Shown one piece after another: positions 404 to 52,202 of a DNA stretch of 64,000 nucleotides. Numbering within the stretch: position 1 is the first letter of the stretch; every line of letters begins with the position of its first letter. This DNA comes from a virus. A model generated the notes under the pieces. It made no database searches. It was not told the origin of the DNA and saw only the letters and a program-made list of their open reading frames with translations. The stretch lies in the IMG/VR virus record IMGVR_UViG_3300008261_003175; one strand, given 5' to 3'. Made by a program: the position numbers and the translations under genes.

Positions 404-862
404 TTATTGGTTTTCATTGAGTTGCTTAACGTCCCGTCTGAACCATTTGCCTTGAATATTCTCATTGTACGAATCAGTAGACAGCACTTCGTATACCATT
501 TGATAGAACACTTCGTAGTACGATAATTGTTTTTTTGAGAAGCAAAATTCGATAATTTCTCTTTTGAACTTGTGTGGACCCAAAACTTTAACGTCTTCCA
601 AAAGAGGTTTACAACTGCCATAGTATTTATTCCAATCTGATTCTTTTACTACTTTGGTTTTGTTGGGAACTTTTCCTGGTTTCGACCAAGATTCTTTTTC
701 TTTGAGAGTAAGTTTCTTTGTGAGTAAGTTTCGTAGTATTTTCTTACCTATGTATATTTTTCCCGTGTCTATGTTATAGATCTTGTAAACGAATCCGATA
801 CAGTTTTCAGGAAAATCTTCTAGAGTCAAGTACTCTTGACCTTGATGCAACCAATTTGTCAT
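404..862 (-). CDS. GIY-YIG (Seg-like) endonuclease family protein
   Basis: GFVYKIYNIDTGKIYIGKK, YYGS, conserved E (YYEV) and YNENI motifs. Confidence 0.75.
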   Translation of the reverse strand: MTNWLHQGQEYLTLEDFPENCIGFVYKIYNIDTGKIYIGKKILRNLLTKKLTLKEKESWSKPGKVPNKTKVVKESDWNKYYGSCKPLLEDVKVLGPHKFKREIIEFCFSKKQLSYYEVFYQMVYEVLSTDSYNENIQGKWFRRDVKQLNENQ

Positions 863-3507: not shown

Positions 3508-4218
3508 TTATTGCTGAGATAATAGCTGAGTTTGAACATTAGATTGAATGGTTGATATTTTATCCAATACATCTAAAGTGATGTCTTCAGGTATGGTAAA
3601 CCCGTAGCCTGTATATCCAAATTTTATATCCAATGGAATTATTATATTTTGCTCATCTTGTAATTTTTTTACTATTAGCAATTCGCTAATTTGATCTGGA
3701 TTATTTTGAAAATACACATCTAAATCTGGATTAACCGTTATTTGTAGAACGTTAGCGATATTAGAAACAGTTCGAATAGTTAATATTTGAACGCGACCAT
3801 CGTAAGATTTTATAACTATTTTATCGTTAAACTTTGGAGAGAACGCTTGAGTGATATTTCCATACGTTGTATATAGACTATTTTGAAATTCAGGAGTTGC
3901 GTCTGGAGATATTGCATAAAACGGAATTTGTCGATAATCGTCTGTAAAAGAACTAAGAATTGTATTGAATACAAGAACGTTTGGAGGTTGTACAGAATAA
4001 ACAAAATTTCCGTAATCAGCGCTTGAAGTTGCGTAAGGATAACCACCGATACTAACTGGTTGTATATCTACTGTTAAACTGCCAGTGCTAACTGATCCTG
4101 TCCAATTTCCACTCGTAGGTTGATACTCACTCACGAACTCAAAAGTAAATTCATCCCCCGCGTAACAGTTACTAAGCGTAGTTGAAATAGAGTATTTTAA
4201 TGATCCTGATGTTGCCAT
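3508..4218 (-). CDS. Putative baseplate protein; possibly the detached C-terminal part of 5129-8719
   Basis: N-terminus SGSLKYSISTTLSNCYAGDEFTFEF resembles the final strands of a C1q/TNF-like sandwich. Confidence 0.45.
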   Translation of the reverse strand: MATSGSLKYSISTTLSNCYAGDEFTFEFVSEYQPTSGNWTGSVSTGSLTVDIQPVSIGGYPYATSSADYGNFVYSVQPPNVLVFNTILSSFTDDYRQIPFYAISPDATPEFQNSLYTTYGNITQAFSPKFNDKIVIKSYDGRVQILTIRTVSNIANVLQITVNPDLDVYFQNNPDQISELLIVKKLQDEQNIIIPLDIKFGYTGYGFTIPEDITLDVLDKISTIQSNVQTQLLSQQ

Positions 4219-4222
4219 GTTG

Positions 4223-5110
4223 TTAATTAAATATATTAATACTTTCGATTACTATTTCTTCTAAATTTCTATTAATTATGATGTCTCCTATAAGTAATTC
4301 CTCAGACGTTATATTACTCCATTCGTTGTTTCTTTTTATTACGTGTTTATGAGAATCAGAACATCTAATCAATCCATTGTTAAGTAAATAAAGTTTGTCT
4401 ACTTCATGGAAACTTTTAGATGTTATTATAGATTCTTCGTATTGCATTGTTTCAGGATCTATAGAAAGTAGACTATCTCCAATATTTACGTCTTTTAAAA
4501 ATATATTTTTTCCATCATATAGTTCTATTAAAGTATCGGGTGTTAAACAATTTTTCTGCAAACTTCCATTCTTAAATGAATACTCTCCGTATGGAAATCT
4601 ATTTGTAGCTGATCTGCCCGTTGCATCTGTTGCTGTCATTACAGCTTGCCAATAAAAAGTTCCATCAGATGTATTAAATAGTGTTTGTACAGAAAATGAT
4701 ATCGGATTATTTGCTTGCCAACCAAAAAACGACGGCTGGTACGTCATTGCGCCTTGAGTACTTATACCTAAAGTGTTGTTATATGTAAGTCTTCCATTTT
4801 GGAATTGTAATTTTACCATCGGATATGCTTGAGTACCCGCGCACCTAGCACCGCCATCTGCGAACTCAAAATAATTTTCGTTTGTATTAGACGATACTAT
4901 TATTTGTATGGGTAAACTTGGCACGTAACTACTTTGATAAAATATTTTAGGTTTTACAGTACCGCCAAAATTTTCAATAGTTCTAGAAGAATAGCTAGTT
5001 CCAATCGGACATTCGATCGTGTCAGGATTTTTAACGTAGTTGTGAGTTAATACTCCATTGGCTATATATCTTTGCGTTGTCGTAGATATATTTATTACTT
5101 TATATTTCAT
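4223..5110 (-). CDS. Circularly permuted Hint/intein protein: IntC (aa1-24), payload (aa25-187), IntN (aa188-295)
   Basis: N-terminal KVINISTTTQRYIANGVLTHN (blocks F/G); C-terminal CLTPDTLIELYDG (block A), IRCSDSHKH (block B), ELLIGD, then IESINIFN-stop. Confidence 0.85.
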   Translation of the reverse strand: MKYKVINISTTTQRYIANGVLTHNYVKNPDTIECPIGTSYSSRTIENFGGTVKPKIFYQSSYVPSLPIQIIVSSNTNENYFEFADGGARCAGTQAYPMVKLQFQNGRLTYNNTLGISTQGAMTYQPSFFGWQANNPISFSVQTLFNTSDGTFYWQAVMTATDATGRSATNRFPYGEYSFKNGSLQKNCLTPDTLIELYDGKNIFLKDVNIGDSLLSIDPETMQYEESIITSKSFHEVDKLYLLNNGLIRCSDSHKHVIKRNNEWSNITSEELLIGDIIINRNLEEIVIESINIFN

Positions 5111-5128
5111 TTTTTGTAATAATTTTTT

Positions 5129-8100
5129 TTATATTCCGTAAGGCTCTCCAAAAGTGATATAGTAAGAATTTCCTGGATAATTTCCTCCTGATCCGCCACC
5201 TGTTCCATCTGCATTAAATATATAACTTTGAGAAGCCGCAATAGTTCCATTTCTTTTAATTAACATGGTAAATGATCCGCTTTCTGCATCATTAGACGCT
5301 GTCAAATTCAAATCAAATCTTAAATTAATAACATAATTACCAGCATTTCTAACTAAATAATTTGTATAATCTAAAGAACCTGTATCCCCAGCTGAGTGAG
5401 CGCCTGATTGATCAATTACTTCTACATCAAATAGATTGTATATTGAACCAGTCATACCAGATCCAGAAGGAATAAGAGGGTATCTCAGATTTGTAGATCC
5501 AGAAACATAATTATCAGGAAACGGATTATTTCTTGCTAATACGTATGAATTGCTTGTTCCTAAATAAGAAAAATAAACTCTTTTATCGTTTGCCGCATTA
5601 AAATAAAGCATTGGAGTGTAACTATATCCGCTTTCATAAATGGTGTGAACTGCATTGATAGACGGCTGTTCGTTATCGAAAAAGTTGTTTTTACTATCGA
5701 ATTGTTTTACAGTTAAAGTTTTACCTGCTTTAAAAGTGTTTTGAACTTCGAACCAATTGTTGTTTGATTGATTCAATTCATTAATTCCGCTGACTCTATC
5801 AACCAAGTAAACCATTGTAACATCAGTATACCCAGGAAAAAATATATTAGATTTTATTTGAGAAAATAGACCCAACTTCTGAGTTCTAAGATCTATAACT
5901 GGGAATTTTCCGTACGATTTATCTCCCGCATATCCAAAAGACGCTGTTGTGTATATATTATATTGTCTACCTTCTAATTTAGATCCAAAATATCTCGGTA
6001 TAGTGCTTCTTTGAGAAAAATAATTAAAATCCTGTAATTGCGCGTAAGGATTATTTTTGTTAGTGTATGTATTGAAATTATCTGATACCGAATTATCTAT
6101 TGATTGGGTTATTAATCCAAAATTAACTGGTACAATCGAATTATACGAATAATCTAAATCTAAATATTTTGTAGATCTAACAGAAGCTGTTACGTTATTT
6201 ATAAGAGTATCTAAATAAACGACACTAGATGTCAGAGCATTGCTTGATTTTTCCGTTTGGTTTCCTAAACTAGTCAAACTAGTTGCAACAACTTGTGTGC
6301 CCATATATTCTCCCGTAAATTTCTCGACTCCAAAAGATTGAGTTACTGATATGTAACCTATCGAAGACGGTACATCTTGGTAAACGGTAGTGTCAGCAGA
6401 ATAACTTGTGGCCGCGAAAGCTGAAATTGTTCCTATATCTATAGATTCAGAATAGTTAGCAAACGCAATTTCAGGCTCGTGACGAGCATACTTACTTCTC
6501 TCTAATATATGTGGCTTTATAACAATTCCAGTAGAAACGTTAGATCTTGCTGGCACAAAATCTTTTACCATTTTGAATAAAGAATTATTATAATACTTTA
6601 TTAATCTGATGTATTCCCATATAGAATGGGAGTAGTTATAAGTGCTAAAATAATTATTTCTATAATTGTCTAAACTGTTATACGATGCTGAATAAAGATT
6701 TTTTGGATCTCCTATATATTGATCAATGTTAAAAACGTTTGCTAATGAAGACGATAGGTTGCTATTAATTTTGTCTGAAGGAGAAAATCCTATTTCTAAG
6801 TTATAACTGCTTAATCTATTTAAATCGTTGTATTTTTGTATAGTTGTATACGGACTTAAAATAGATTCAGATAGATATAGAGCTGAGCTTTGACTAACTA
6901 TCGATATTTTATCATTATTTATAGAATCTATGCCTGAAACAGAATTTCTATTGTATCCTCCAAATTCATTTACAGTTAATATGCTATTGGGTATTCCATA
7001 ACATGCTATTAGAGCTTTTATGCCCCTTTGTGTGCCTCTAGTTTTTAATAAGTAGGGTAAATTATGATATATGCGTTTGTATACCTCTTTTTGCACTTGA
7101 TCGTAAGGAAGTATATAAGGTCTTCCTGATCCCGAAATGCTCGAAGTCACATACGTAGTAATCTTTTCAGAACCTGTAGGAGGCAACAGGGAATTTTGAT
7201 TATTTGTGCCGAATAAAGAATAGTATACGTCGTTAGATAGATTTGTATTGGTGTATAATTCTATACCAAATCCCTTTAAAGCATCGGATACAAGATCTAA
7301 AGATATTCCTTCGTAAGGATTATTTGAAGCATTGTATCTATTTGTGATGTCTTTATAATATATCCATATATTATCGAAATATTGACCAATCATGTCAATA
7401 AACGTTATATATGATTCATTGCTATTATCGTCTCTTAGATATTGAGGTATAGACAATCTTAGTATGTCTTTATTAGTGCTATCGTAAAAAGATGCAGAGA
7501 ATAAAACAGATGCTGTAGTTGCATTAGGCGTAGTTGTCGGCGATCCTAACCAAGAAATAGCTTTAGAAGACGTAACAGAGTGTAGAGAGTAGGGTTTTGT
7601 GCTAGTAGATTTAGGCCAAGCAAAAGATTCAGATTCGTAGTATAAATAATATTCGTACGGATCAAATTTTTCTATTACGTTAGAAATATACGTATTTAGT
7701 AAATTTACAGACGAAGTCACTGTTGCTTGATTAGCTGTTCCAACAACAAGACTTTGAGAATATATTTGCTTGTTATAATCTTCTATTAATCCAAGTTTAT
7801 ATACAAAATTATTTACTCTCTCCTCAGCGCTTGAAAAGTGAATAAAATTATCAAAACTTGAATAATCTACATTTATTGATAGTGCTTTATCTTCGTAGTA
7901 AGACATTAGTTGTCTAATTGACGAAGTTAAATTTGAAGAAAATAATGTATTGTACGAATAATATTGAGTAGTTTGTCCAATTGATTGTTTATCTTTCACA
8001 TTATAGTTTGGGCCTCTTAATTTAAAAGAGGTATCAACTGCTACTGATTCTACCTGTATATCAACTTTGTAACTAACAGAATTTCCTAATTTTTCAACAA

Positions 8101-8719
8101 TTGATAATTGACTTTTTAATTCAATATCAATAGGAAGAGGTTCATATAATTTTATTAGAAGATAACTATTACCATCGGACTCTGTTATTACAATGGCATT
8201 GACTGCTATGATTAAATTATTTCTACCAAAATTCAAATAAAAATCAGGATAGTAGTTTTTTTGGCTTATATAATTTTCAAATTCATCGAAACCTGCTACG
8301 ATAGATGTACTAGAAAGATCTTGAGATGCTAATTTTAATTCTAATCTAGAATTAGAAATTTCTTTAATAAAATATTGAAAAGTGACCGAATCTGATCCAA
8401 ATAGATTTTTTAAAAAATTATATTGTATATTGATAACACCTCTATTATATCCCATCGATTTTACATCTGCCTCAGGATCAATCAATACTCTACTGTATCT
8501 ATTTCCTACAATATTCGATGTTGGATCTAGTGAATATGGAGCGTTATATCTATAATCTAATAAAAAATTAGAATCGTCCGTGATGAAATACTCTACTGTG
8601 TCAACTCCGTCTTCAAATGTATTATTGATATTGTTATTAGTGATTAATTGTAAATCTCTAGTACTGTATCTCTGAATCTCAGATCCGAATCCGGTGTATG
8701 ATATGTTAACAATTTCCAT
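5129..8719 (-). CDS. Large baseplate wedge-associated structural protein
   Basis: 1196 aa; FIDMIGQYFD and LLKTRGTQRGIKALIACYG (P2 gpI / T4 gp7-like segment), MVKDFVPAR; downstream of the gp6-like gene. Confidence 0.6.
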   Translation of the reverse strand: MEIVNISYTGFGSEIQRYSTRDLQLITNNNINNTFEDGVDTVEYFITDDSNFLLDYRYNAPYSLDPTSNIVGNRYSRVLIDPEADVKSMGYNRGVINIQYNFLKNLFGSDSVTFQYFIKEISNSRLELKLASQDLSSTSIVAGFDEFENYISQKNYYPDFYLNFGRNNLIIAVNAIVITESDGNSYLLIKLYEPLPIDIELKSQLSIVEKLGNSVSYKVDIQVESVAVDTSFKLRGPNYNVKDKQSIGQTTQYYSYNTLFSSNLTSSIRQLMSYYEDKALSINVDYSSFDNFIHFSSAEERVNNFVYKLGLIEDYNKQIYSQSLVVGTANQATVTSSVNLLNTYISNVIEKFDPYEYYLYYESESFAWPKSTSTKPYSLHSVTSSKAISWLGSPTTTPNATTASVLFSASFYDSTNKDILRLSIPQYLRDDNSNESYITFIDMIGQYFDNIWIYYKDITNRYNASNNPYEGISLDLVSDALKGFGIELYTNTNLSNDVYYSLFGTNNQNSLLPPTGSEKITTYVTSSISGSGRPYILPYDQVQKEVYKRIYHNLPYLLKTRGTQRGIKALIACYGIPNSILTVNEFGGYNRNSVSGIDSINNDKISIVSQSSALYLSESILSPYTTIQKYNDLNRLSSYNLEIGFSPSDKINSNLSSSLANVFNIDQYIGDPKNLYSASYNSLDNYRNNYFSTYNYSHSIWEYIRLIKYYNNSLFKMVKDFVPARSNVSTGIVIKPHILERSKYARHEPEIAFANYSESIDIGTISAFAATSYSADTTVYQDVPSSIGYISVTQSFGVEKFTGEYMGTQVVATSLTSLGNQTEKSSNALTSSVVYLDTLINNVTASVRSTKYLDLDYSYNSIVPVNFGLITQSIDNSVSDNFNTYTNKNNPYAQLQDFNYFSQRSTIPRYFGSKLEGRQYNIYTTASFGYAGDKSYGKFPVIDLRTQKLGLFSQIKSNIFFPGYTDVTMVYLVDRVSGINELNQSNNNWFEVQNTFKAGKTLTVKQFDSKNNFFDNEQPSINAVHTIYESGYSYTPMLYFNAANDKRVYFSYLGTSNSYVLARNNPFPDNYVSGSTNLRYPLIPSGSGMTGSIYNLFDVEVIDQSGAHSAGDTGSLDYTNYLVRNAGNYVINLRFDLNLTASNDAESGSFTMLIKRNGTIAASQSYIFNADGTGGGSGGNYPGNSYYITFGEPYGI

Positions 8720-10145: not shown

Positions 10146-11999
10146 TTAAAAAGTAACTACTCTGCCTTGAATATCTTTATCTAGATATTTAACTTCAAAA
10201 ATGCTCGGATCTAAAGAAGGATATAGTATATCATTTATTGTTGCGCCTGGTATATCGTAAGAATATTTAGAATAACCAGAAGATTCTCCATATAGATTGG
10301 TTATTTGTACATTTTGAGTAGTTTGTACGCCTTGAACTTGATCTAATAATGAATACACATTAGATAATATTATAGGTTGATTTATTTGGAAATTGTCTAT
10401 ATTAAAATAATCTTGTAAAGCAGTTATACATCTAGCAATAACGTCTTGACCTGAGAAGTTTGGTCTAATTATCACATCAAAAATACAACCGATATTGATA
10501 ATAAAAGCGCTTTTTATATTTATAGTATCCGTCATCATTCTATATTCGGATAAATATGTATCTATATTTTGAGAAAGCGCTTGAGATGGCTGAGCTAGAT
10601 TAGCATTTGAATCTAATCCAAGTACGTATAAACTAACTAGTGATTGATCTCTATTTGCTGGGCTATTTTTTGAATATTGTACGAATGTAGAATCATCTTT
10701 TGTTACGTATACTTTAGCGACTTTTCCAAATTTAGGATGCATCGATAACACTCTTGACATATAGTCTTGTTGTGTAACTGCTCTTAATTGGCTTGAATAT
10801 TGCACCATTGAGTTCATTCTCAATTCTTCTATCGTATCTCCATCTCCGCCACCTGCTGCAGGAAGAGGGTTATTTGTAACTATAGTATTTTGTTGAGAAG
10901 TATTATTTCCAGTCACTGTAAAAGAAACAGGAACCGTTAGTTGATTGGATTGCGCATTAGATGATGCTCCACCTCCAACTAAATATTGAACTGTTAGAGT
11001 TGTATTTTTTGGAGTTAATCCGTAAGTTTGCGTGGTTACAAAATTAGTAGGATCGAAAGCTGTATTTAGAAGAGTTAAACCGTTTGTCAAACCCATTCCT
11101 ACTGTACTTGGATCTGGTATTATTGCGGAATCTGCTACTGAATTTATACCTGATCCAAATTCTAATACTAGAGATTGATTAGATAAAACTCTACTAATAA
11201 ATCTACGAGGAACGCTTATCTTGTCTATTATATAAGGTACTTGATTGCTAAACTGATTTAAACTTGGGTAATTAGTCGATGTATTTTGTACGGGATTAAA
11301 TATATAATCTTGAGCCAAATAAGGAACCTCATACCAAATATTGCCATCGCTATCAGTTACTTTAACTATAGATATAATATTAGAATCATTTATAGTTATT
11401 CTAGGAAATCTGTCTGAATTACCAAAGGTGAATGTTTGAGATTTTAATTGTCCCGAGATCGCTTTAGCTGATTTCTTTAGAAGATACTTGTCAGGATTTC
11501 CAGAGCTTAAACTATAAATAGAAATATCTGTTGGATCATAAGATGAAGAAATAGTAAAATCTACTTTTTCTGGTATATAGAAATAAGCTGTAGTAGAAAC
11601 ATTAGATTGAACCTGCATTCCGGGTTGAACTACCAATGCGTAATCAAAATCTGGATAATATTGTCCGCCGACTATTTTTGAAGGAACTGTTTGAAACACA
11701 TCTAGATCTGCTATAGCTGCTGAAGTTATTTTAGGTCTATATCCTAGCATGTATGCTAGAGAATATAAATTATTTGGCTGCTTTGCGTATTGTAAAAAAG
11801 TTTCTTGTAATTGATTGTCTAAATAATAAGACAATACGTCGCCAACGTATGCAGCCATTTCTATAAACATAGATCCTGGTGAAGCTTGGCTGAAATCATT
11901 ATATACAGTAGGAAAATAAGATTTAGCGTACTCTATCAAATCTGACTTGAAAGTAGAAAAATCTTTATTTAAATAATTTATTTGTTTATTATTTGCCAT
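10146..11999 (-). CDS. Baseplate wedge subunit (T4 gp6 / baseplate J-like)
   Basis: YLNKDF...DFSQASPGSMFIEMAAYVGDVLSYYLD, LEFGSG, GGGDGDTIEELR, RAVTQQDY. Confidence 0.9.
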   Translation of the reverse strand: MANNKQINYLNKDFSTFKSDLIEYAKSYFPTVYNDFSQASPGSMFIEMAAYVGDVLSYYLDNQLQETFLQYAKQPNNLYSLAYMLGYRPKITSAAIADLDVFQTVPSKIVGGQYYPDFDYALVVQPGMQVQSNVSTTAYFYIPEKVDFTISSSYDPTDISIYSLSSGNPDKYLLKKSAKAISGQLKSQTFTFGNSDRFPRITINDSNIISIVKVTDSDGNIWYEVPYLAQDYIFNPVQNTSTNYPSLNQFSNQVPYIIDKISVPRRFISRVLSNQSLVLEFGSGINSVADSAIIPDPSTVGMGLTNGLTLLNTAFDPTNFVTTQTYGLTPKNTTLTVQYLVGGGASSNAQSNQLTVPVSFTVTGNNTSQQNTIVTNNPLPAAGGGDGDTIEELRMNSMVQYSSQLRAVTQQDYMSRVLSMHPKFGKVAKVYVTKDDSTFVQYSKNSPANRDQSLVSLYVLGLDSNANLAQPSQALSQNIDTYLSEYRMMTDTINIKSAFIINIGCIFDVIIRPNFSGQDVIARCITALQDYFNIDNFQINQPIILSNVYSLLDQVQGVQTTQNVQITNLYGESSGYSKYSYDIPGATINDILYPSLDPSIFEVKYLDKDIQGRVVTF

Positions 12000-12415
12000 T
12001 ATTGAGTATTTTGAATAGCTATAGTTACCGTATCAGAATCTCCAGTATTTAAGATAGTGTAAAAAAATTTTATATTTATTGAATTATCGTCAATATTAGA
12101 TAGTATATCTATATTTTGTACTTCAATGTTAGGAAAATTGCTTTTTACTTGACTAGCGATTCTTAATTTTATTTGATCAAAATTTTCTTGGTTTATTTGT
12201 TCGAATAGTATCAATCTCAATCCACAACCAAAATTAGGATTCTGAGGCCTTTCATACTTATCTGTTAATAAAAAATTAATCAAATTATATTTCAATTGAT
12301 CTTTTGTATTATAGACAGTACTAAAAGCAGATGGTGATTCAAAAGGAATACTTACGCCAACCCCAGTTGAAGTTCGTAGATCGAGTGGAGAAATATTTTT
12401 TATTCCGTAAGCCAT
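11999..12415 (-). CDS. Baseplate protein, gp25/GpW-like
   Basis: QLKYNLINFLLTDKYERPQNPNFGCGLRLILFE. Confidence 0.88.
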   Translation of the reverse strand: MAYGIKNISPLDLRTSTGVGVSIPFESPSAFSTVYNTKDQLKYNLINFLLTDKYERPQNPNFGCGLRLILFEQINQENFDQIKLRIASQVKSNFPNIEVQNIDILSNIDDNSINIKFFYTILNTGDSDTVTIAIQNTQ

Positions 12416-45764: not shown

Positions 45765-48700
45765 ATGAGTTTATTACCAATAAAATATAGCGATATACCG
45801 GGCAGGTCTCCATCGCTTTTGTTGATAGGAGAATTAGCGGTAAATATCGCAGATGGCAATCTCTATTACGGATCGAAAAACGGAGTGAGACTATTCTCTT
45901 TTAGTGGAAGTTCGTCTACCAATACAGGCAGTCTGTTGCTAACAGCGTCCGTTAATTTAAATACAATAACTTTTACAAAAGGCAACGGATCTACGTTTGC
46001 CATTACTGTAGACACCGGATCTGGATCTCCAGGAAGCGGAACAGTTACTTCTATAGCTACAGCAGGACTTATATCGGGAGGGACTATTACCACTACTGGT
46101 ACGATCAGCACTTCTATGAATACAAATAGACTTGTAGGTAGAAGCACAGCTGGTGTAGGTATTATGGAAGAGATTACGATCGGATCCGGACTTTCTCTTT
46201 CAGGAGGAACTCTTAGTGCTACTGGAGGTGGAGGAACATTTCCTTTTGATGGTTCTGCTGTAATTACAGGTTCCTTACTTGTATCCGGTAGTGGAATAAC
46301 TATTACCGGATCACTTAATATATCAGGTTCATTAAATGCAACATCAAGTTGGGCTATTAATGCTTTAACTTCATCAAATATACAAGGTGGAGCTGCAAAT
46401 TATATACCATTATGGAAAACTGATACTAGTTTAACTAGTAGTTTTTTATATCAAAATAATAATGTATTAACAGCTCGATCTAATAGTATAGATAATGGAT
46501 TAATGATTGATTTTGGAAGTAATCAATATAGAATAGGAGGTTTTGGTGCTTCTCCCTTTAATTACATAGGTATTGATCCTAATTTTACACAATTATTTGG
46601 CAGTAATGTAATCCTAGATGCATCTTCAGCTACTTTAGAAATATCCTCAGGGTTAATAAAAACAACATCTGGAGCATCAAATATTAAAGGATTAAAACTT
46701 GATTTTAATAATAACGTATATAGTTTAGGAGATACTGATGATTTAAATACTCTTACAAAAATAAAAGTAGACGAAAGTAGTCAATCTGTTATTATAACTG
46801 GCTCACTTACTACAACAGGATCAGTATTTTTTCCGTTTTTAATAGAACAATCTCAAAATAATGTTGTATTAATAGATACATCAACTGGCCAGCTTTATTA
46901 CACAGCATCATCAGCAATTGGAGGAGGTGGAAGTGGAACTCCAGGTGGAACAGATCAAACAATTCAATTTAATTCAGCATCTGTATTTAGCGGCTCTGCT
47001 AAATTAAAATACGACTATACTAACAGCAATATAATATTAACAGGTTCATTATTAGTAACTCAATCATATATCTCTAAAGTAGATTATGTTGAGTTTACAT
47101 CAGCATCAGATCAACTCACAGCAGTAGGTAGATTAGGATGGAATAATAGTGATGGTACATTAAGTTTAGGATTAAAAGGTGGTAATGTTGATCTTTTAGT
47201 TGGTGAAACTGAAGTAGCATATGTTTATAATGCTGAGGCAACAACATTAACAAAAGGTGAAGTTGTTTTTATAACAGGATCACAAGGTAATAGAGTATCC
47301 GTTAAAAGAGCAGCAGCCTCCTCTGATCCAGTCTCTGCAGGTACATTAGGATTTGTAGCGGAACCTATAATTTCAGGTCAAACTGGATTTGTAATAACAA
47401 GCGGAGTAATAAATAAACTAGATACTTCTGCTTATACAGAAGGAGCACTAGTATATTTAAGTAGCTCAGCAGGTCAGTATACAACAGTTAAACCAGTATC
47501 CCCAATCCACGAAGTACGTCTTGGATATATACAAAGATCACATCCCACAGTAGGTTCAATCTACGTTAAAGTAGATAATGGATATGAAATAGGAGAACTA
47601 CATGATGTATTAGATAATACAACATCTTCATCCTATGGAGATTTACTTGTTAAAAGTGGTAGTTTATGGATTAATTCAAAACAACTAACTGGATCATACG
47701 GATTAACAGGTAGTTTAACTGTAACTCAAAACATATCAGCAAGCTCATTTACAGGATCATTGTTTGGTACAGCAAGTTGGGCACACAGCGCTTCTAATGC
47801 TATAAATGCACAAACAGCATCCTATGTTACTTCATCAAATGTATTTGGTCCTTATGGTTCAAATTCAATATTAAGTGCATCATTTGCTTTAACAGCATCA
47901 ATAGCAACAACAGCTATAACATCATCATACCCAATATCAGTAACAGGTAGTGGTACTACTTTATATTCTGTAAGTCCTCTTGCTAATCCTAATTTTGGTG
48001 AGGGTGCTACACATTCTATATTTTTTGGACAAGAAGCAGGATATTTAGTATCAGACGCATATTATGCAAACTTTATAGGCAGACAAGCAGGATATACAGC
48101 ATCATATGCTGAAGATTCAAATTTCTTAGGATATAGAGCAGGATTTAATGCTACTTATGCTAATCGCTCAAATTTCTTAGGATCATCAGTTGGAAGTAAT
48201 GCTACCTATGCATCTCAATCTAATTTCTTTGGTCATCAAGCCGGATTTGAAGCATATACTGCATCTAACTCAAATTTCTTAGGTTACCAAGCAGGATTTC
48301 AAGCCTATTTATCAAATGACTCAACATTTATGGGTTATCGGGCAGGTTATTTAGCTACCACTGCAAGCGATTCAGTTTTTATAGGATACGAAACAGGCAG
48401 ACAAGCCTCAAGAGCTAATAATTCTATTTTTATAGGCAGCGGATCAGGAAATGGGGCTACTAATTCTAATAATTCTGTTTTTTTAGGTTCAACAGCAGGA
48501 AAAAATGCTAGTAGCGCTCATTCTATTTTTATAGGAACTAATGCAGGTAGTAGCACTAGTGGAGGTAATTCTATTATTATAGGTCGAGATGCAGGAAGTA
48601 CTATAAGTAGTACATCAAATTCTATTTTAATAGGTTATCAAGCTGGTAAAAGAATAACAGGCACCGGCATTGGTAATAATAACATTATTATTGGTACAAA

Positions 48701-51700
48701 CATCACTTTACCAAACGGAACTAGTAATGCTGTTAATATAGGAGGCGCATTATATATAACAGGAATTTATGGAAATACAACAGGAGACCCACTAACTGGC
48801 TCATACATCGATGTACTAACACAACCTAAAGTAGGTATAGGCACATTTTCTCCATCCGCGTTATTACATATTAATCAAATAGAGAGAGGTAATCCTCAAT
48901 TTATCGTCTCTAATAGGGAAAGCGGAAGCGTATTTAGAGTAGATGAAAATTCAATATTTGCACCTCAATTAAGATCTTTACCTGTAGGATCGTACGAGAT
49001 AGTAGTAAGAGATACAGCCACAGGTCAATTATACGTAGTTTCGTCTAGCAATTTTATAACCGGAAGCGGAAGCGGAACTACTCCTCCAGGCGGTGCAGAT
49101 ACTCAAATACAATATAATAACGGTGGAGCTTTCGGCGGAAGTAGTTATTTTATATATAATTACGTAAATAATAGTTTAAAACAAGGAAATACAATAACAG
49201 CACGAGGAGCGTATTCTCACGGAGAAGGATGCAATACTTTTGTAGGACAATTTGGATACCATGCCTCTGATGTAACATCAGGAGTAATAACGCTTGATGT
49301 TGCGTATGGAGATGTTAAAAATACAGGGGTCGCCGAAGCTGATGGATTCATAATATTAGACGACACAGCGTATTCTAATACTTACGGTGTTAGAGCATTT
49401 ACTATAGCAAGTGTTGCAGGTGGACCGCCTACTACAATAACATTAAATAATGCGGGAATAACCACATCAGAGGCGATAATATATATACCTGGAAGAGCTG
49501 AACCTCTAAGAGCAGATATACTTTTACCTGGTGATTGCGCTCACTCTGAAGGATCGAGCTCTATAGCGTCTGGAAATGCTTCTCATGCCGCTGGTATAGA
49601 AACAAATGCATTCGGCAATTATTCATACGCAGGCGGCCAAGGAACAGTGGCAACATCTGTGGGTCAAACCGTAGTAGGTAAATACAATTTACCAAATTCT
49701 GATATCGTCAGTTACGGTAACTCTTTTATAATTGGTAAAGGAACAAGTACAAGTGCGAGAACTAATATGTTTGAAGCTGTTCCTTCAGCAGATACTCTTA
49801 CAATATCTGCATCTTATGTTGCAATTAAAGGCATACCTAGATTTGATGCACAACCTTTTCTATTGGCTTATGAAACTTCATCTGGTCAGATATACTTCTC
49901 AACAGCATCTCTTGTTGGTGGTGGTAGTACTACAACAACATTATCACGAATAACAACAGGTTCAGTTACGGCTAGTACAAATGTAGGTACAGGAAATGTA
50001 TTTACTGTTACAAGTGCTAGTATAGCAGAATTTGCTGTAGCAGGAACTGGCGTTACAATAGGTAACGTTATAACAGATCAACATACCGTAACAGGATCTC
50101 TATCAATATCAGGCTCCACTACAATAACAGGTTCATTAAGAGTAAGAGACGGCATAACAGGATCATTGTTTGGTACTGCTAGTTGGGCTACTAATGCTTT
50201 AACTGCATCTTATGTCTTAGCAAGTAATATTGCAGGAGACATATCAAGAATAGCAATAGGATCGGTAACTGCAAGCGTAGGAAATAGCTCAGGAAATATA
50301 TTTAATATTATTAGTGGTAGTAGTACGTTTGTGAATATTACTAATAATGGCGATGTTGGCATAGGAGCCCCAGCAACTTCTACCACTAAATTACAAATAT
50401 CATCTAGTACTAATCTTTCATTGGGTATAGTAAGATCTACGACAAATGCAGGTTATTTATCTTTAGATAATGCTACGTTTGCTATAGCTGTTAATCGTAA
50501 TCCTGTAGGTTCTTTTATAGATACGTCAAAAGCATCATCTCAAATTAATTTATTTACAGGAGTATCTGATTCGAATATCAAATTTTATACGACTACTGCA
50601 AATAATACATTACCTAGTGAAAGAATGATTATTACTAAAGACGGTAATGTCGGTATTAATAGAACGGCTCCGATATATACACTAGATGTAAGTGGTAGTA
50701 TTAATTTTATTGGAGATACTATCGTAACAGGATCGTTTACGGTAATAACAGGTAGCTCCGTAGAATTTCAAGTTATAAATACTGGAGTTAGGATAGGTAA
50801 TATAATTACCGATACTCATACTGTAACAGGTAGCTTCAATATATCAGGCTCAACAACTATAAGAGGAAATACAAGAATAAGCGGCAGTGTATTCATCAGC
50901 GGTTCATTAATACCAAACGTTAATGGAACTCAAACTTCAAGCTTTAATCTAGGATCTCCAACAGCAGCATGGAAAGCGCTTTATGTAGCAACAAGAAGTA
51001 TTCACTTTGTTGATGTTGATGGAATTGAAGTAGCAAATATATCTGTAGAACCAAATGGTGGTGGTGGGAGTTTTATTAATATAGGCGATATTAGAACCTA
51101 TGACGAAAATGAGTTAGCTTTTAGAGGTATTGAAGTTGATAGACAACAAGGATTTGTTTTTTTAGGAGATTATAATAAAACTTTACCATTTCCAATATCA
51201 CTTAATTTAATACCGGATGCTAATCAAAAAATTTATACTGAAGGTTCTTCATCAGGTGAAAGTGGATTTAAAGTAGATTTTGTAAATGATCCATTCCCTA
51301 GAGTATGGTTAGGAGATTTTAATGGAACTGGAAAAAGTACATCTTTAATAATAAATGACTTTTTCCAAACAATAACTACTAGCGGTAGTTTTATAATGTC
51401 TGGTTCGTTAAATGTAACTCAAGGTATAACAGGATCATTACAAGGAACATCATCCTTTGCTTTAACAGCATCTCATGTTTTAAATGGTGGAACATCAACA
51501 ATTCCAACACAAATAGTAACTGGTTCAGTTACAGCTAGTGTAACACTAACACAATTTAGCGTTACAAGTGGTAGTATTACTGAATTTAGTGTAGCAGGAA
51601 CAGGAGTTACAATAGGTAATACGGCATCAGATATACATAAAGTAACTGGTTCATTTAATATAAGTGGTTCAACAACAGTAAATGGTCAATTATTTCTTTC

Positions 51701-52202
51701 TAGATATACTAGTGCAACCGCTTTTACAAGCTCAACAACAACAGCTAGTTTAGCCGTTGATACAGATGGTAATGTAGTAACCTCTCCATTTTATGATAGT
51801 GGAGAAAAAACATATACTGGAACAGTAACATGGACAGGAACGACTGCCCCATCAGGAGCAACTACTCACTCCTATCATTGGAGTCGAGTTGGAAATCTAG
51901 TAACAGTAAGGTTAAATTTAGCATACGCAGTAGCAGGAAACTCTTTAACATTAGCGTCTGCTACATTACCTACGGATTGTCCAATTCCTATTTCTCCTAG
52001 TGGCGTAACAGCGGCTAGTGAAGCAATATCTTATGGAACAGGTATTTTAGTAACTGTAAAAACAGTTCCAGCTTTTACTACTGTAGGCGCTGGTATGTCT
52101 GCATTAAGAAGAAATTCTGGAAATAATGGATACGATATAGCTATTATAAGAGCGTCAGCAAATTACCAATATGGTTACGCAACAATACAATATTATGCAT
52201 AA
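45765..52202 (+). CDS. Long tail fibre / receptor-binding protein
   Basis: 2145 aa, G/S/T-rich; GELAVN.ADG.LY N-terminus; YadA-like F[IL]GxxAG repeats; TGSLFGTASWA modules. Confidence 0.8.
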   Translation: MSLLPIKYSDIPGRSPSLLLIGELAVNIADGNLYYGSKNGVRLFSFSGSSSTNTGSLLLTASVNLNTITFTKGNGSTFAITVDTGSGSPGSGTVTSIATAGLISGGTITTTGTISTSMNTNRLVGRSTAGVGIMEEITIGSGLSLSGGTLSATGGGGTFPFDGSAVITGSLLVSGSGITITGSLNISGSLNATSSWAINALTSSNIQGGAANYIPLWKTDTSLTSSFLYQNNNVLTARSNSIDNGLMIDFGSNQYRIGGFGASPFNYIGIDPNFTQLFGSNVILDASSATLEISSGLIKTTSGASNIKGLKLDFNNNVYSLGDTDDLNTLTKIKVDESSQSVIITGSLTTTGSVFFPFLIEQSQNNVVLIDTSTGQLYYTASSAIGGGGSGTPGGTDQTIQFNSASVFSGSAKLKYDYTNSNIILTGSLLVTQSYISKVDYVEFTSASDQLTAVGRLGWNNSDGTLSLGLKGGNVDLLVGETEVAYVYNAEATTLTKGEVVFITGSQGNRVSVKRAAASSDPVSAGTLGFVAEPIISGQTGFVITSGVINKLDTSAYTEGALVYLSSSAGQYTTVKPVSPIHEVRLGYIQRSHPTVGSIYVKVDNGYEIGELHDVLDNTTSSSYGDLLVKSGSLWINSKQLTGSYGLTGSLTVTQNISASSFTGSLFGTASWAHSASNAINAQTASYVTSSNVFGPYGSNSILSASFALTASIATTAITSSYPISVTGSGTTLYSVSPLANPNFGEGATHSIFFGQEAGYLVSDAYYANFIGRQAGYTASYAEDSNFLGYRAGFNATYANRSNFLGSSVGSNATYASQSNFFGHQAGFEAYTASNSNFLGYQAGFQAYLSNDSTFMGYRAGYLATTASDSVFIGYETGRQASRANNSIFIGSGSGNGATNSNNSVFLGSTAGKNASSAHSIFIGTNAGSSTSGGNSIIIGRDAGSTISSTSNSILIGYQAGKRITGTGIGNNNIIIGTNITLPNGTSNAVNIGGALYITGIYGNTTGDPLTGSYIDVLTQPKVGIGTFSPSALLHINQIERGNPQFIVSNRESGSVFRVDENSIFAPQLRSLPVGSYEIVVRDTATGQLYVVSSSNFITGSGSGTTPPGGADTQIQYNNGGAFGGSSYFIYNYVNNSLKQGNTITARGAYSHGEGCNTFVGQFGYHASDVTSGVITLDVAYGDVKNTGVAEADGFIILDDTAYSNTYGVRAFTIASVAGGPPTTITLNNAGITTSEAIIYIPGRAEPLRADILLPGDCAHSEGSSSIASGNASHAAGIETNAFGNYSYAGGQGTVATSVGQTVVGKYNLPNSDIVSYGNSFIIGKGTSTSARTNMFEAVPSADTLTISASYVAIKGIPRFDAQPFLLAYETSSGQIYFSTASLVGGGSTTTTLSRITTGSVTASTNVGTGNVFTVTSASIAEFAVAGTGVTIGNVITDQHTVTGSLSISGSTTITGSLRVRDGITGSLFGTASWATNALTASYVLASNIAGDISRIAIGSVTASVGNSSGNIFNIISGSSTFVNITNNGDVGIGAPATSTTKLQISSSTNLSLGIVRSTTNAGYLSLDNATFAIAVNRNPVGSFIDTSKASSQINLFTGVSDSNIKFYTTTANNTLPSERMIITKDGNVGINRTAPIYTLDVSGSINFIGDTIVTGSFTVITGSSVEFQVINTGVRIGNIITDTHTVTGSFNISGSTTIRGNTRISGSVFISGSLIPNVNGTQTSSFNLGSPTAAWKALYVATRSIHFVDVDGIEVANISVEPNGGGGSFINIGDIRTYDENELAFRGIEVDRQQGFVFLGDYNKTLPFPISLNLIPDANQKIYTEGSSSGESGFKVDFVNDPFPRVWLGDFNGTGKSTSLIINDFFQTITTSGSFIMSGSLNVTQGITGSLQGTSSFALTASHVLNGGTSTIPTQIVTGSVTASVTLTQFSVTSGSITEFSVAGTGVTIGNTASDIHKVTGSFNISGSTTVNGQLFLSRYTSATAFTSSTTTASLAVDTDGNVVTSPFYDSGEKTYTGTVTWTGTTAPSGATTHSYHWSRVGNLVTVRLNLAYAVAGNSLTLASATLPTDCPIPISPSGVTAASEAISYGTGILVTVKTVPAFTTVGAGMSALRRNSGNNGYDIAIIRASANYQYGYATIQYYA
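48010..48700 (+). repeat. About 13 degenerate ~17-aa S[NI]F[LI]GxxAG beta-roll repeats in the fibre
   Basis: SIFFGQEAG, ANFIGRQAG, SNFLGYRAG, SNFFGHQAG, SNFLGYQAG, STFMGYRAG, SVFLGSTAG and others; boundaries approximate. Confidence 0.75.

Follow-up and report, generated by a model that had tools for sequence, protein, structure and literature searches.

Evidence for a Hint domain in natural circular permutation, with BIL-like junctions, encoded in a phage baseplate module

Circularly permuted inteins, as used in SICLOPPS, are a workhorse of protein engineering. A single chain carries the C-terminal intein part (IntC), a target and the N-terminal intein part (IntN) in that order, and a review presents this arrangement only as an engineering strategy (PMC8114279). 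To our knowledge, the order IntC-payload-IntN was known before only from such engineered protein-cyclising constructs, and our full-text literature searches, from which most subscription journals were missing, turned up no intein or Hint domain that is circularly permuted by nature. Here we analysed a 64,000-nucleotide (nt) stretch of viral DNA (IMG/VR record IMGVR_UViG_3300008261_003175; hereafter the window), in which the open reading frame (ORF) at 4223..5110 on the minus strand very probably encodes a natural circularly permuted Hint domain with junctions like those of the domains called bacterial intein-like (BIL), set in a phage baseplate module.

Four described systems come closest. The engineered SICLOPPS intein made from Npu DnaE (PDB 5ol6) shares with the phage protein the single-chain IntC-target-IntN design and a break at a natural split site, and is the best match to the whole predicted model. 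The phage protein differs in being natural, in having a Hint part that resembles BILs rather than DnaE, and in starting its target with Tyr or Lys instead of Cys or Ser; moreover, the phage target is a folded immunoglobulin-like (Ig-like) domain of 107-186 residues, and its cyclisation is a proposal. Type A BILs, such as that of C. thermocellum (2lwy), have the same Hint fold, Cys1, block B His and terminal His-Asn, likewise lack a nucleophile at +1, and occur in variable regions of non-conserved surface proteins. They can splice, though cleavage products dominate, and ligation has been proposed to proceed by attack of the amine freed by Asn cyclisation on the N-terminal thioester (PMC4031507). 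Known BILs are contiguous, whereas in the phage protein the two parts are reversed around a payload. BIL2, from the BUBL1 polyubiquitin-like locus of T. thermophila (6tmm, 6y75), links its N-extein to the epsilon-amine of lysines, including those of other proteins (PMC8616854), and the phage family has a near-invariant Lys at its C-terminal junction. However, BIL2 is eukaryotic, contiguous, flanked by ubiquitin-like domains and zinc-regulated, and any Lys chemistry of the phage proteins is inferred. Finally, natural split inteins (DnaE, gp41-1, NrdJ-1) are also broken between blocks B and F, and, as with their pieces, those of the phage protein are predicted to re-associate, but the phage halves sit on one polypeptide in reverse order, without a +1 nucleophile and without a split host protein in the window.

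The frame runs from ATG to TAA and encodes 295 amino acids (aa). It begins with M-K-Y-K-V-I-N-I-S-T-T-T-Q-R-Y-I-A-N-G-V-L-T-H-N, an IntC-like half with blocks F and G (aa 1-24; 5039..5110, minus strand, as are all parts of the gene) that was assigned from profile matches and conservation and ends in His23-Asn24. The family alignment places a C-terminal junction flank, Tyr25-Val26-Lys27 (positions +1 to +3; 5030..5038), at the start of the 163-residue payload (aa 25-187; 4550..5038), which the models present as a fast-evolving Ig-like beta-sandwich with a probable Cys34-Cys90 pair. The IntN-like half (aa 188-295; 4226..4549), assigned from profile and structure matches, starts with Cys-Leu-Thr-Pro, reads C-L-T-P-D-T-L-I-E from residue 188 on and extends for 108 residues to the end of the protein. 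Within it lie Cys188 (4547-4549), block B with Ser251-x-x-His254 (4349-4360) in the motif C-S-D-S-H-K-H around residues 250-256, and Gly275-Asp276. The TAA stop (4223..4225) follows directly, and the next gene begins 4 nt downstream. Codons read by eye placed H23 at 5042-5044, N24 at 5039-5041, Y25 at 5036-5038 and K27 at 5030-5032, with N187 at 4550-4552, C188 at 4547-4549, S251 at 4358-4360 and H254 at 4349-4351. The coordinates given for the ORF, IntC, payload and IntN in a preliminary description of this DNA were all correct by this check of frame and codons, and the order it had read, with 24 residues of IntC, a 163-residue beta-rich payload and IntN from residue 188 to the end, agrees with the profiles, the family and the models.

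Instead of following the order A-B-F-G on one contiguous segment, blocks F and G thus occupy aa 1-24 and blocks A and B aa 188-295, and a single 132-residue Hint domain is made up of the first 24 and the last 108 residues of the protein. This structural reading is supported by conservation across the family, continuity with normal-order relatives, profile matches, the fold match to a SICLOPPS intein, the predicted complex between the two halves and the intact catalytic residues.

Profile matches were found at both ends. Positions 313-335 of NCBIfam NF038136, a model that contains a contiguous intein, match aa 3-25 of the ORF, and positions 75-130 of the same model match the C-terminal half of the relative P0007. 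Residues 188-295 match positions 10-44 of Pfam Hint and 13-94 of Intein_splicing, both weakly. The preliminary description had expected hidden Markov models to hit both ends; the curated models gave matches at each, with scores below the cut-offs (in P0001, 14.7 bits against 29.7 for Hint and 14.5 against 35.8 for Intein_splicing), as divergent split halves score poorly against contiguous models. Searched against the sequences of PDB chains, a profile of ten homologues found BIL2 of Tetrahymena (6y75) as its best match (expectation value (E) 0.007), in two pieces in permuted order: profile positions 187-288 correspond to chain residues 9-118, and positions 14-25 to chain residues 138-149. A profile built from de-permuted members and normal-order relatives matched the ORF as two complementary pieces, its positions 1-107 covering the C-terminal half and 107-132 the N-terminus. 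The same kind of search in six frames of the 64-kb window returned no other IntN-like or IntC-like segment, in agreement with the preliminary statement that no further intein halves are visible there.

Structure prediction gave a consistent picture. With Foldseek, the C-terminal half matched BIL2 best, along with the C. thermocellum BIL, Hedgehog (1at0), gp41-1 and NpuDnaB, all with probability 1.00, and the Hint-fold matches had TM scores, normalised by target, of 0.55-0.65. When the full AlphaFold model was compared with 48,161 solved chains by VIA-align, the first match was 5ol6_A, the engineered Npu SICLOPPS intein (Z 12.2, root-mean-square deviation 2.4, 120 aligned residues, 17% identity), followed by the BIL 2lwy (Z 12.1) and BIL2 6tmm (Z 11.9). 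Z was at least 8 for 28 chains, and the top 29 rows were all Hint or intein entries. The alignment with 5ol6_A runs in sequence order, that is, in the permuted order, with model residues 1..283 against chain residues 11..142, so the two termini are predicted to form one Hint fold, as had been anticipated. Predicted as separate chains, the IntN and IntC halves formed a complex with a score of 0.88, compared with 0.04 for the best control; the mark used is passed by 58 of 80 solved complexes and by 2 of 110 mismatched pairs. Contact agreement among runs was at least 93% and partner pLDDT (predicted local distance difference test) at least 73, and in the predicted interface all residues 1-25 contact the other half, including the stretches around Cys188 and His254. 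This pass indicates likeness, and may stem from the predictor's memory of solved split inteins.

The payload itself was modelled alone as a beta-sandwich (pLDDT 67, predicted TM score 0.63). Its fold matches in the PDB were generic Ig-like or pilin-like entries with Z of at most 6.3, and there was no viral fold match (best BFVD E 0.028). Payloads of the 18 complete permuted proteins we identified share Y-x-P-x-x-P and A-x-D motifs and vary by large indels (107-186 residues). Most also have a Cys pair, which is probably a disulfide and no part of the mechanism, judging from the alignment, because one member (P0013) has no payload Cys at all.

The architecture is conserved across a family. A word-indexed search returned nine full-length homologues (36-80% identity) and an exhaustive profile search 658 proteins at E ≤ 0.001; 158 retrieved proteins were then scored with separate IntC, payload and IntN profile parts. 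The order with IntC first and IntN last was found in 18 complete representatives (P0001-P0017 and P0019), as well as in fragments, and related phages with the same permuted order, which the preliminary description had asked for, therefore exist. These representatives span 11-80% payload identity, and cluster representatives going down to ~35-45% identity occupy the same baseplate slot. Mean pairwise identity among the 18 members was 75% for IntC, 52% for IntN and 25% for the payload, and V5, A17, N18, L21, T22, H23 and N24 were invariant over 19 sequences. We found no match to the 295-aa protein by tblastn against 50,697 GenBank phage records, and no relatives in 185,579 species genomes. The permuted arrangement is under purifying selection in this clade of uncultured phages, and ratios of non-synonymous to synonymous substitution rates (dN/dS) against the homologue with 80% identity were 0.09 for IntC, 0.14 for the payload and 0.12 for IntN. 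The identical 295-residue protein was also present on at least 22 independently assembled contigs (ENA, JGI, NCBI, Logan), always with the same neighbours. Because of these independent contigs, the 18 diverged members that share the same ends with a clean start and stop, and the low dN/dS in all three parts, we exclude a misassembly, a wrong gene call or a rearranged, decaying intein for all practical purposes.

The closest normal-order relatives (P0021-P0028, P0033-P0038 and others) carry the same Hint motifs contiguously, at the extreme C-terminus of larger proteins, and V-I-N-I-S-T and Y-I-A-N-G-I-L-T-H-N|K are common to permuted and normal-order domains. In several of these contiguous domains (P0021, P0023 and P0059) the last IntN profile position adjoins the first IntC position with zero gap. 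The de-permuted domain is 131-132 residues long in 16 of the 18 members, the remaining two being longer through an N-terminal extension (P0015, 149; P0017, 145), and normal-order domains have 119-154 residues. The zero-gap relatives and matching lengths uphold the earlier claim that joining the C-terminus to the N-terminus restores a contiguous Hint domain. The break lies in the loop ahead of block F, the site at which natural split inteins are divided. A maximum-likelihood tree of 76 Hint domains grouped all 18 permuted proteins as one clade (support 93/83) beside normal-order relatives with K-x-x-C tails. This sister group (P0021-P0028, P0033-P0038, P0044) thus shares with the permuted proteins the Hint sequence and an Ig-like domain ahead of Cys1, and differs in that its contiguous Hint domain is followed only by a tail of 4-7 residues.

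The tails of the normal-order relatives are themselves uniform. Twenty close relatives end in (T-)H-N|K-x-x-C plus 0-3 residues and a stop, giving a 4-7-residue K-x-x-C(-P) tail. This motif recurs as K...C-P at the start of the permuted payloads, which looks as though a normal-order tail had turned into the beginning of the payload. The Ig-like domain directly ahead of the normal-order Hint carries the motifs G-G-x-x-P-Y and V-T-D-S-x-G, and these proteins have weak matches to PKD, fn3, He_PIG and SprB; one starts as a major tail protein. More widely, contiguous Hint domains on phage Ig-like structural proteins make up a clade that has no annotation (P0021-P0028, P0033-P0038, P0042, P0044, P0047, P0048, P0052, P0059, P0076 and P0144). 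A Cys ~55 residues ahead of Cys1 is nearly universal in it, and all its members score below Pfam cut-offs. No clean pairing rule emerged from the Cys pattern of the normal-order relatives.

Two further proteins are also permuted. P0115 (from an SRR30923182 contig) and P0155 (L012:926-1660) are complete genes with their own stops, have a different payload, are broken ~15 residues earlier, start with a longer IntC and end in G-D-I-L-P-Q-[Y/I]. In P0155, Intein_splicing covers residues 5-38 with its positions 122-155 (E 1.7e-7), and Hint covers residues 132-184 with its positions 11-63. Since both proteins branch outside the main permuted clade and differ in break point, the permuted arrangement is suggested to have arisen at least twice, in a tree with long branches and 140 alignment columns. 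Other proteins (P0032, P0046, P0049, P0057, P0108, P0133 and others) contain arrays of two to four Hint domains in tandem, in some cases with nothing but an H-N|K-G-G-G-G-C linker in between. Permutation by way of duplication and truncation could start from arrays of this kind.

We then compared the catalytic residues and junctions. Cys1 (Cys188 here), the block B [S/T]-x-x-His (residues 251-254 here) and the terminal His-Asn (His23-Asn24 here) are each kept in 18 of 18 permuted members. The +1 residue is Lys in 15, Tyr in two and Ser in one. Tyr occurs in the window protein and in its closest relative, each of which has Lys at +3; in the member with Ser, Lys stands at +2. A Lys therefore falls within +1 to +3 in all 18, and the normal-order and tandem Hint domains compared as a rule have Lys at +1 as well. 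The preliminary description had stressed Tyr at +1, which is indeed present here, but the feature common to the family is a Lys at +1 to +3. In P0003 (L003:5467-6423), a proline-rich insertion of ~22 residues stands right behind Lys+1, at residues 25-50, which shows the flank of the C-terminal junction to be a linker that is flexible and differs in length. A role as nucleophile was considered for the conserved Cys at +4 and rejected, since this Cys is absent from P0013 and variable in distance elsewhere; it is more likely half of a disulfide.

These features do not describe a class 1 intein, with which the protein shares the C-terminal His-Asn but which has Cys, Ser or Thr at +1 and is inserted in a conserved host protein that splicing rejoins. 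Here +1 is Tyr in the window protein, Lys in 15 of the 18 members and Ser in one, the gene stands alone, and its relatives lie at the C-termini of Ig-bearing structural proteins. By contrast, the His-Asn end, Cys1, the lack of a +1 nucleophile, the closest solved relatives and the location in a variable slot, with a mean payload identity of 25%, are all those of type A BILs. The suggestion that the junction is of the type A BIL kind (His-Asn followed by a residue other than Cys, Ser or Thr) was thus confirmed by the residues and by the solved BIL matches. The Lys kept throughout the family points to an amine chemistry like that of BIL2 (PMC8616854), and by this analogy it may serve as the acceptor amine or position it.

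The window encodes a large terminase, a portal, a major head protein and baseplate wedge proteins, and thus derives from a phage. Upstream of the Hint gene lie gp25-like (11999-12415) and gp6-like (10146-11999) baseplate genes, in keeping with the baseplate operon named in the preliminary description. In diverged phages the same order recurs: gp25-like and gp6-like genes come first, three genes of 356, 111 and ~1190-1205 aa lead up to the Hint gene, and genes of ~236-253, 219 and 339-345 aa follow it. Directly upstream in the window is a 1196-aa baseplate or fibre-module protein (5129..8719, minus strand) and directly downstream a conserved 236-aa protein (3508..4218, minus strand), both without a Hint half. 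We found no BLAST similarity between the gene's neighbours and any Hint-bearing relative. Two related phages have no Hint gene, and their homologues of the 1196-aa protein have 1387 aa (L008:3712-7875) and 1554 aa (L011:3358-8022). The slot between the big protein and the conserved 219-aa gene is variable, as is commonly seen in distal parts that face the host. A single TAA and 18 nt in an A-rich run (5111-5131) stand between the Hint ORF and the 1196-aa ORF upstream of it, and the two share a frame. A read-through fusion was considered and set aside, as the spacing in relatives is 17, 12, 15 and 25 nt and the frame is not conserved; the match in frame is probably due to chance. There was likewise no support for a cassette that splits a C1q/TNF-like domain over two ORFs, given that L008, which has no cassette, keeps the flanking genes separate.

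In the reaction that we propose, the two halves would fold together in cis and bring Asn187|Cys188 and Asn24|Tyr25 into one active site. Cys188 would form a thioester through an N-S acyl shift, and cyclisation of Asn24 would release the 24-residue IntC. An amine at the N-terminal end of the payload would then attack the thioester, either the new alpha-amine, as in type A BILs, or the epsilon-amine of a Lys, as in BIL2, for which the candidates are K27 here and K+1 in most members. The net result would be a self-closed payload, with either a peptide or an isopeptide bond at the closure, and a discarded, non-covalent Hint complex. The short tail and conserved Asn of the normal-order clade suggest that the tail is kept there, that is, ligated, because N-terminal cleavage alone would otherwise suffice, and in the permuted form, by homology, the ligation would join the payload to itself. 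We consider it probable that the permuted Hint domain still autoprocesses. The full statement, in which the closed (ligated) payload would be the main product, has by analogy with BILs a chance that approaches, and does not reach, an even one. A cyclic payload, a head-to-tail polymer and a thioester coupling to another protein are in any case inferences.

Several observations weigh against a permuted domain that closes its payload. The window protein has no Cys, Ser or Thr at +1, and a BIL with Tyr at +1 spliced only once this residue had been mutated to Cys (PMC4031507). All Pfam and NCBIfam matches were under the curated cut-offs, with the exception of TIGR01443 in P0016 (16.0 against 15.6). 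The full-length model is of moderate quality (pLDDT 66, and below 50 at junction residues 19-31), and a monomer model cannot tell pairing in cis from pairing in trans. Lastly, the search for partner halves covered 64 kb of a phage genome of ~160 kb.

In a rival reading, the Hint domain would clamp the two payload ends to each other while the protein folds or assembles, like an intramolecular chaperone that can be removed, and would then only cut both junctions, by thioester hydrolysis at N187|C188 and Asn cyclisation at N24|Y25, leaving a linear Ig-like product. Such double self-cleavage needs the same catalytic residues, all of which are kept, cleavage is what type A BILs mainly do, and the BIL that failed to splice had Tyr at +1 (PMC4031507), as the window protein does; yet it leaves unexplained the Lys found at +1 to +3 throughout the family and the K-x-x-C tails and His-Asn of the normal-order relatives, and simple removal needs no permutation, so that we regard it as rather unlikely. 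Less likely again is a reaction in trans, in which the IntC of one subunit would complete the IntN of its neighbour to give head-to-tail rings or chains, or a Lys on a different virion protein, for instance the 1196-aa neighbour, would accept the thioester, and that protein would be decorated with an Ig-like domain as BIL2 dispenses ubiquitin-like domains. The isolated halves are predicted to bind each other, with the caution that the predictor may remember solved split inteins, BIL2 attaches its N-extein to lysines in other proteins (PMC8616854), and the big protein of the two phages that lack the Hint gene extends ~190-360 aa further at its C-terminal end, as though it carried a fused distal domain in place of the separate one. 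Nevertheless, the 190-aa C-terminal extension in L008 has no detectable sequence similarity to the payload, so that replacement of a fused distal domain by the payload has no support at the level of sequence. In addition, the junction linkers are long enough for closure in cis, the monomer model closes in cis like SICLOPPS, and both the permutation and cleavage at Asn24 would be superfluous for transfer to another protein.

The predicted association of the halves would equally fit a high-affinity structural clasp, in cis or between subunits, in which no bond is broken, with the same caution about memory. A clasp needs none of the Cys1, [S/T]-x-x-His and His-Asn residues that are invariant in all 18 members amid varying positions, and we consider this reading improbable. 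The order IntC-extein-IntN is also what would be expected of the middle piece of a three-part trans-spliced protein, whose IntN and IntC partners would be encoded on two proteins outside the window, itself 64 kb of the genome. However, no other halves were found in the window, each related IMG/VR fragment has one IntN, and the flanking genes lack halves in every relative. Both halves belong to one and the same domain, as the contiguous relatives show, there is no +1 nucleophile, and the relatives are C-terminal BIL-like domains of Ig-bearing structural proteins rather than inteins in conserved enzymes, which makes such a middle piece highly improbable. Returning to a permuted Hint domain that closes its payload, its widest form would have phages carry out a genetically programmed, enzyme-free macrocyclisation of a folded 107-186-residue Ig-like virion domain through an amine, from the conserved Lys side chain or the freed N-terminus, in place of the canonical Cys, Ser or Thr, with the sister clade splicing its K-x-x-C tail onto Ig-bearing tail proteins by the same Lys chemistry and the permuted design having arisen more than once; we offer this form tentatively, as possible and more doubtful than not.

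The architecture, a real, conserved and unusual one, indicates that evolution reached the SICLOPPS design in a natural family, possibly twice, while its chemistry is discussed here by analogy. Large cyclic proteins are known to arise through asparaginyl endopeptidases, sortase-like enzymes and conjugation-pilin peptidases. If the phage product were closed, it would represent a new natural route to large cyclic proteins and give virions a novel means of hardening a domain on their surface. The family also provides ready-made parts that are independent of Cys, Ser or Thr at +1, and a junction Lys would relax the constraint on junction sequence in present cyclisation and ligation tools. A large clade of Hint domains at the C-termini of Ig-like structural proteins of phages, without annotation, has also come to light.

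Elsewhere in the window, a SegE-like GIY-YIG homing endonuclease gene (404-862, minus strand; Pfam E 1.5e-27) marks the end of the structural operon. It is conserved in place among relatives and is shortened to 118 aa in one of them (L017). Downstream of the head genes, an ORF at 45765-52202 on the plus strand encodes 2145 aa.

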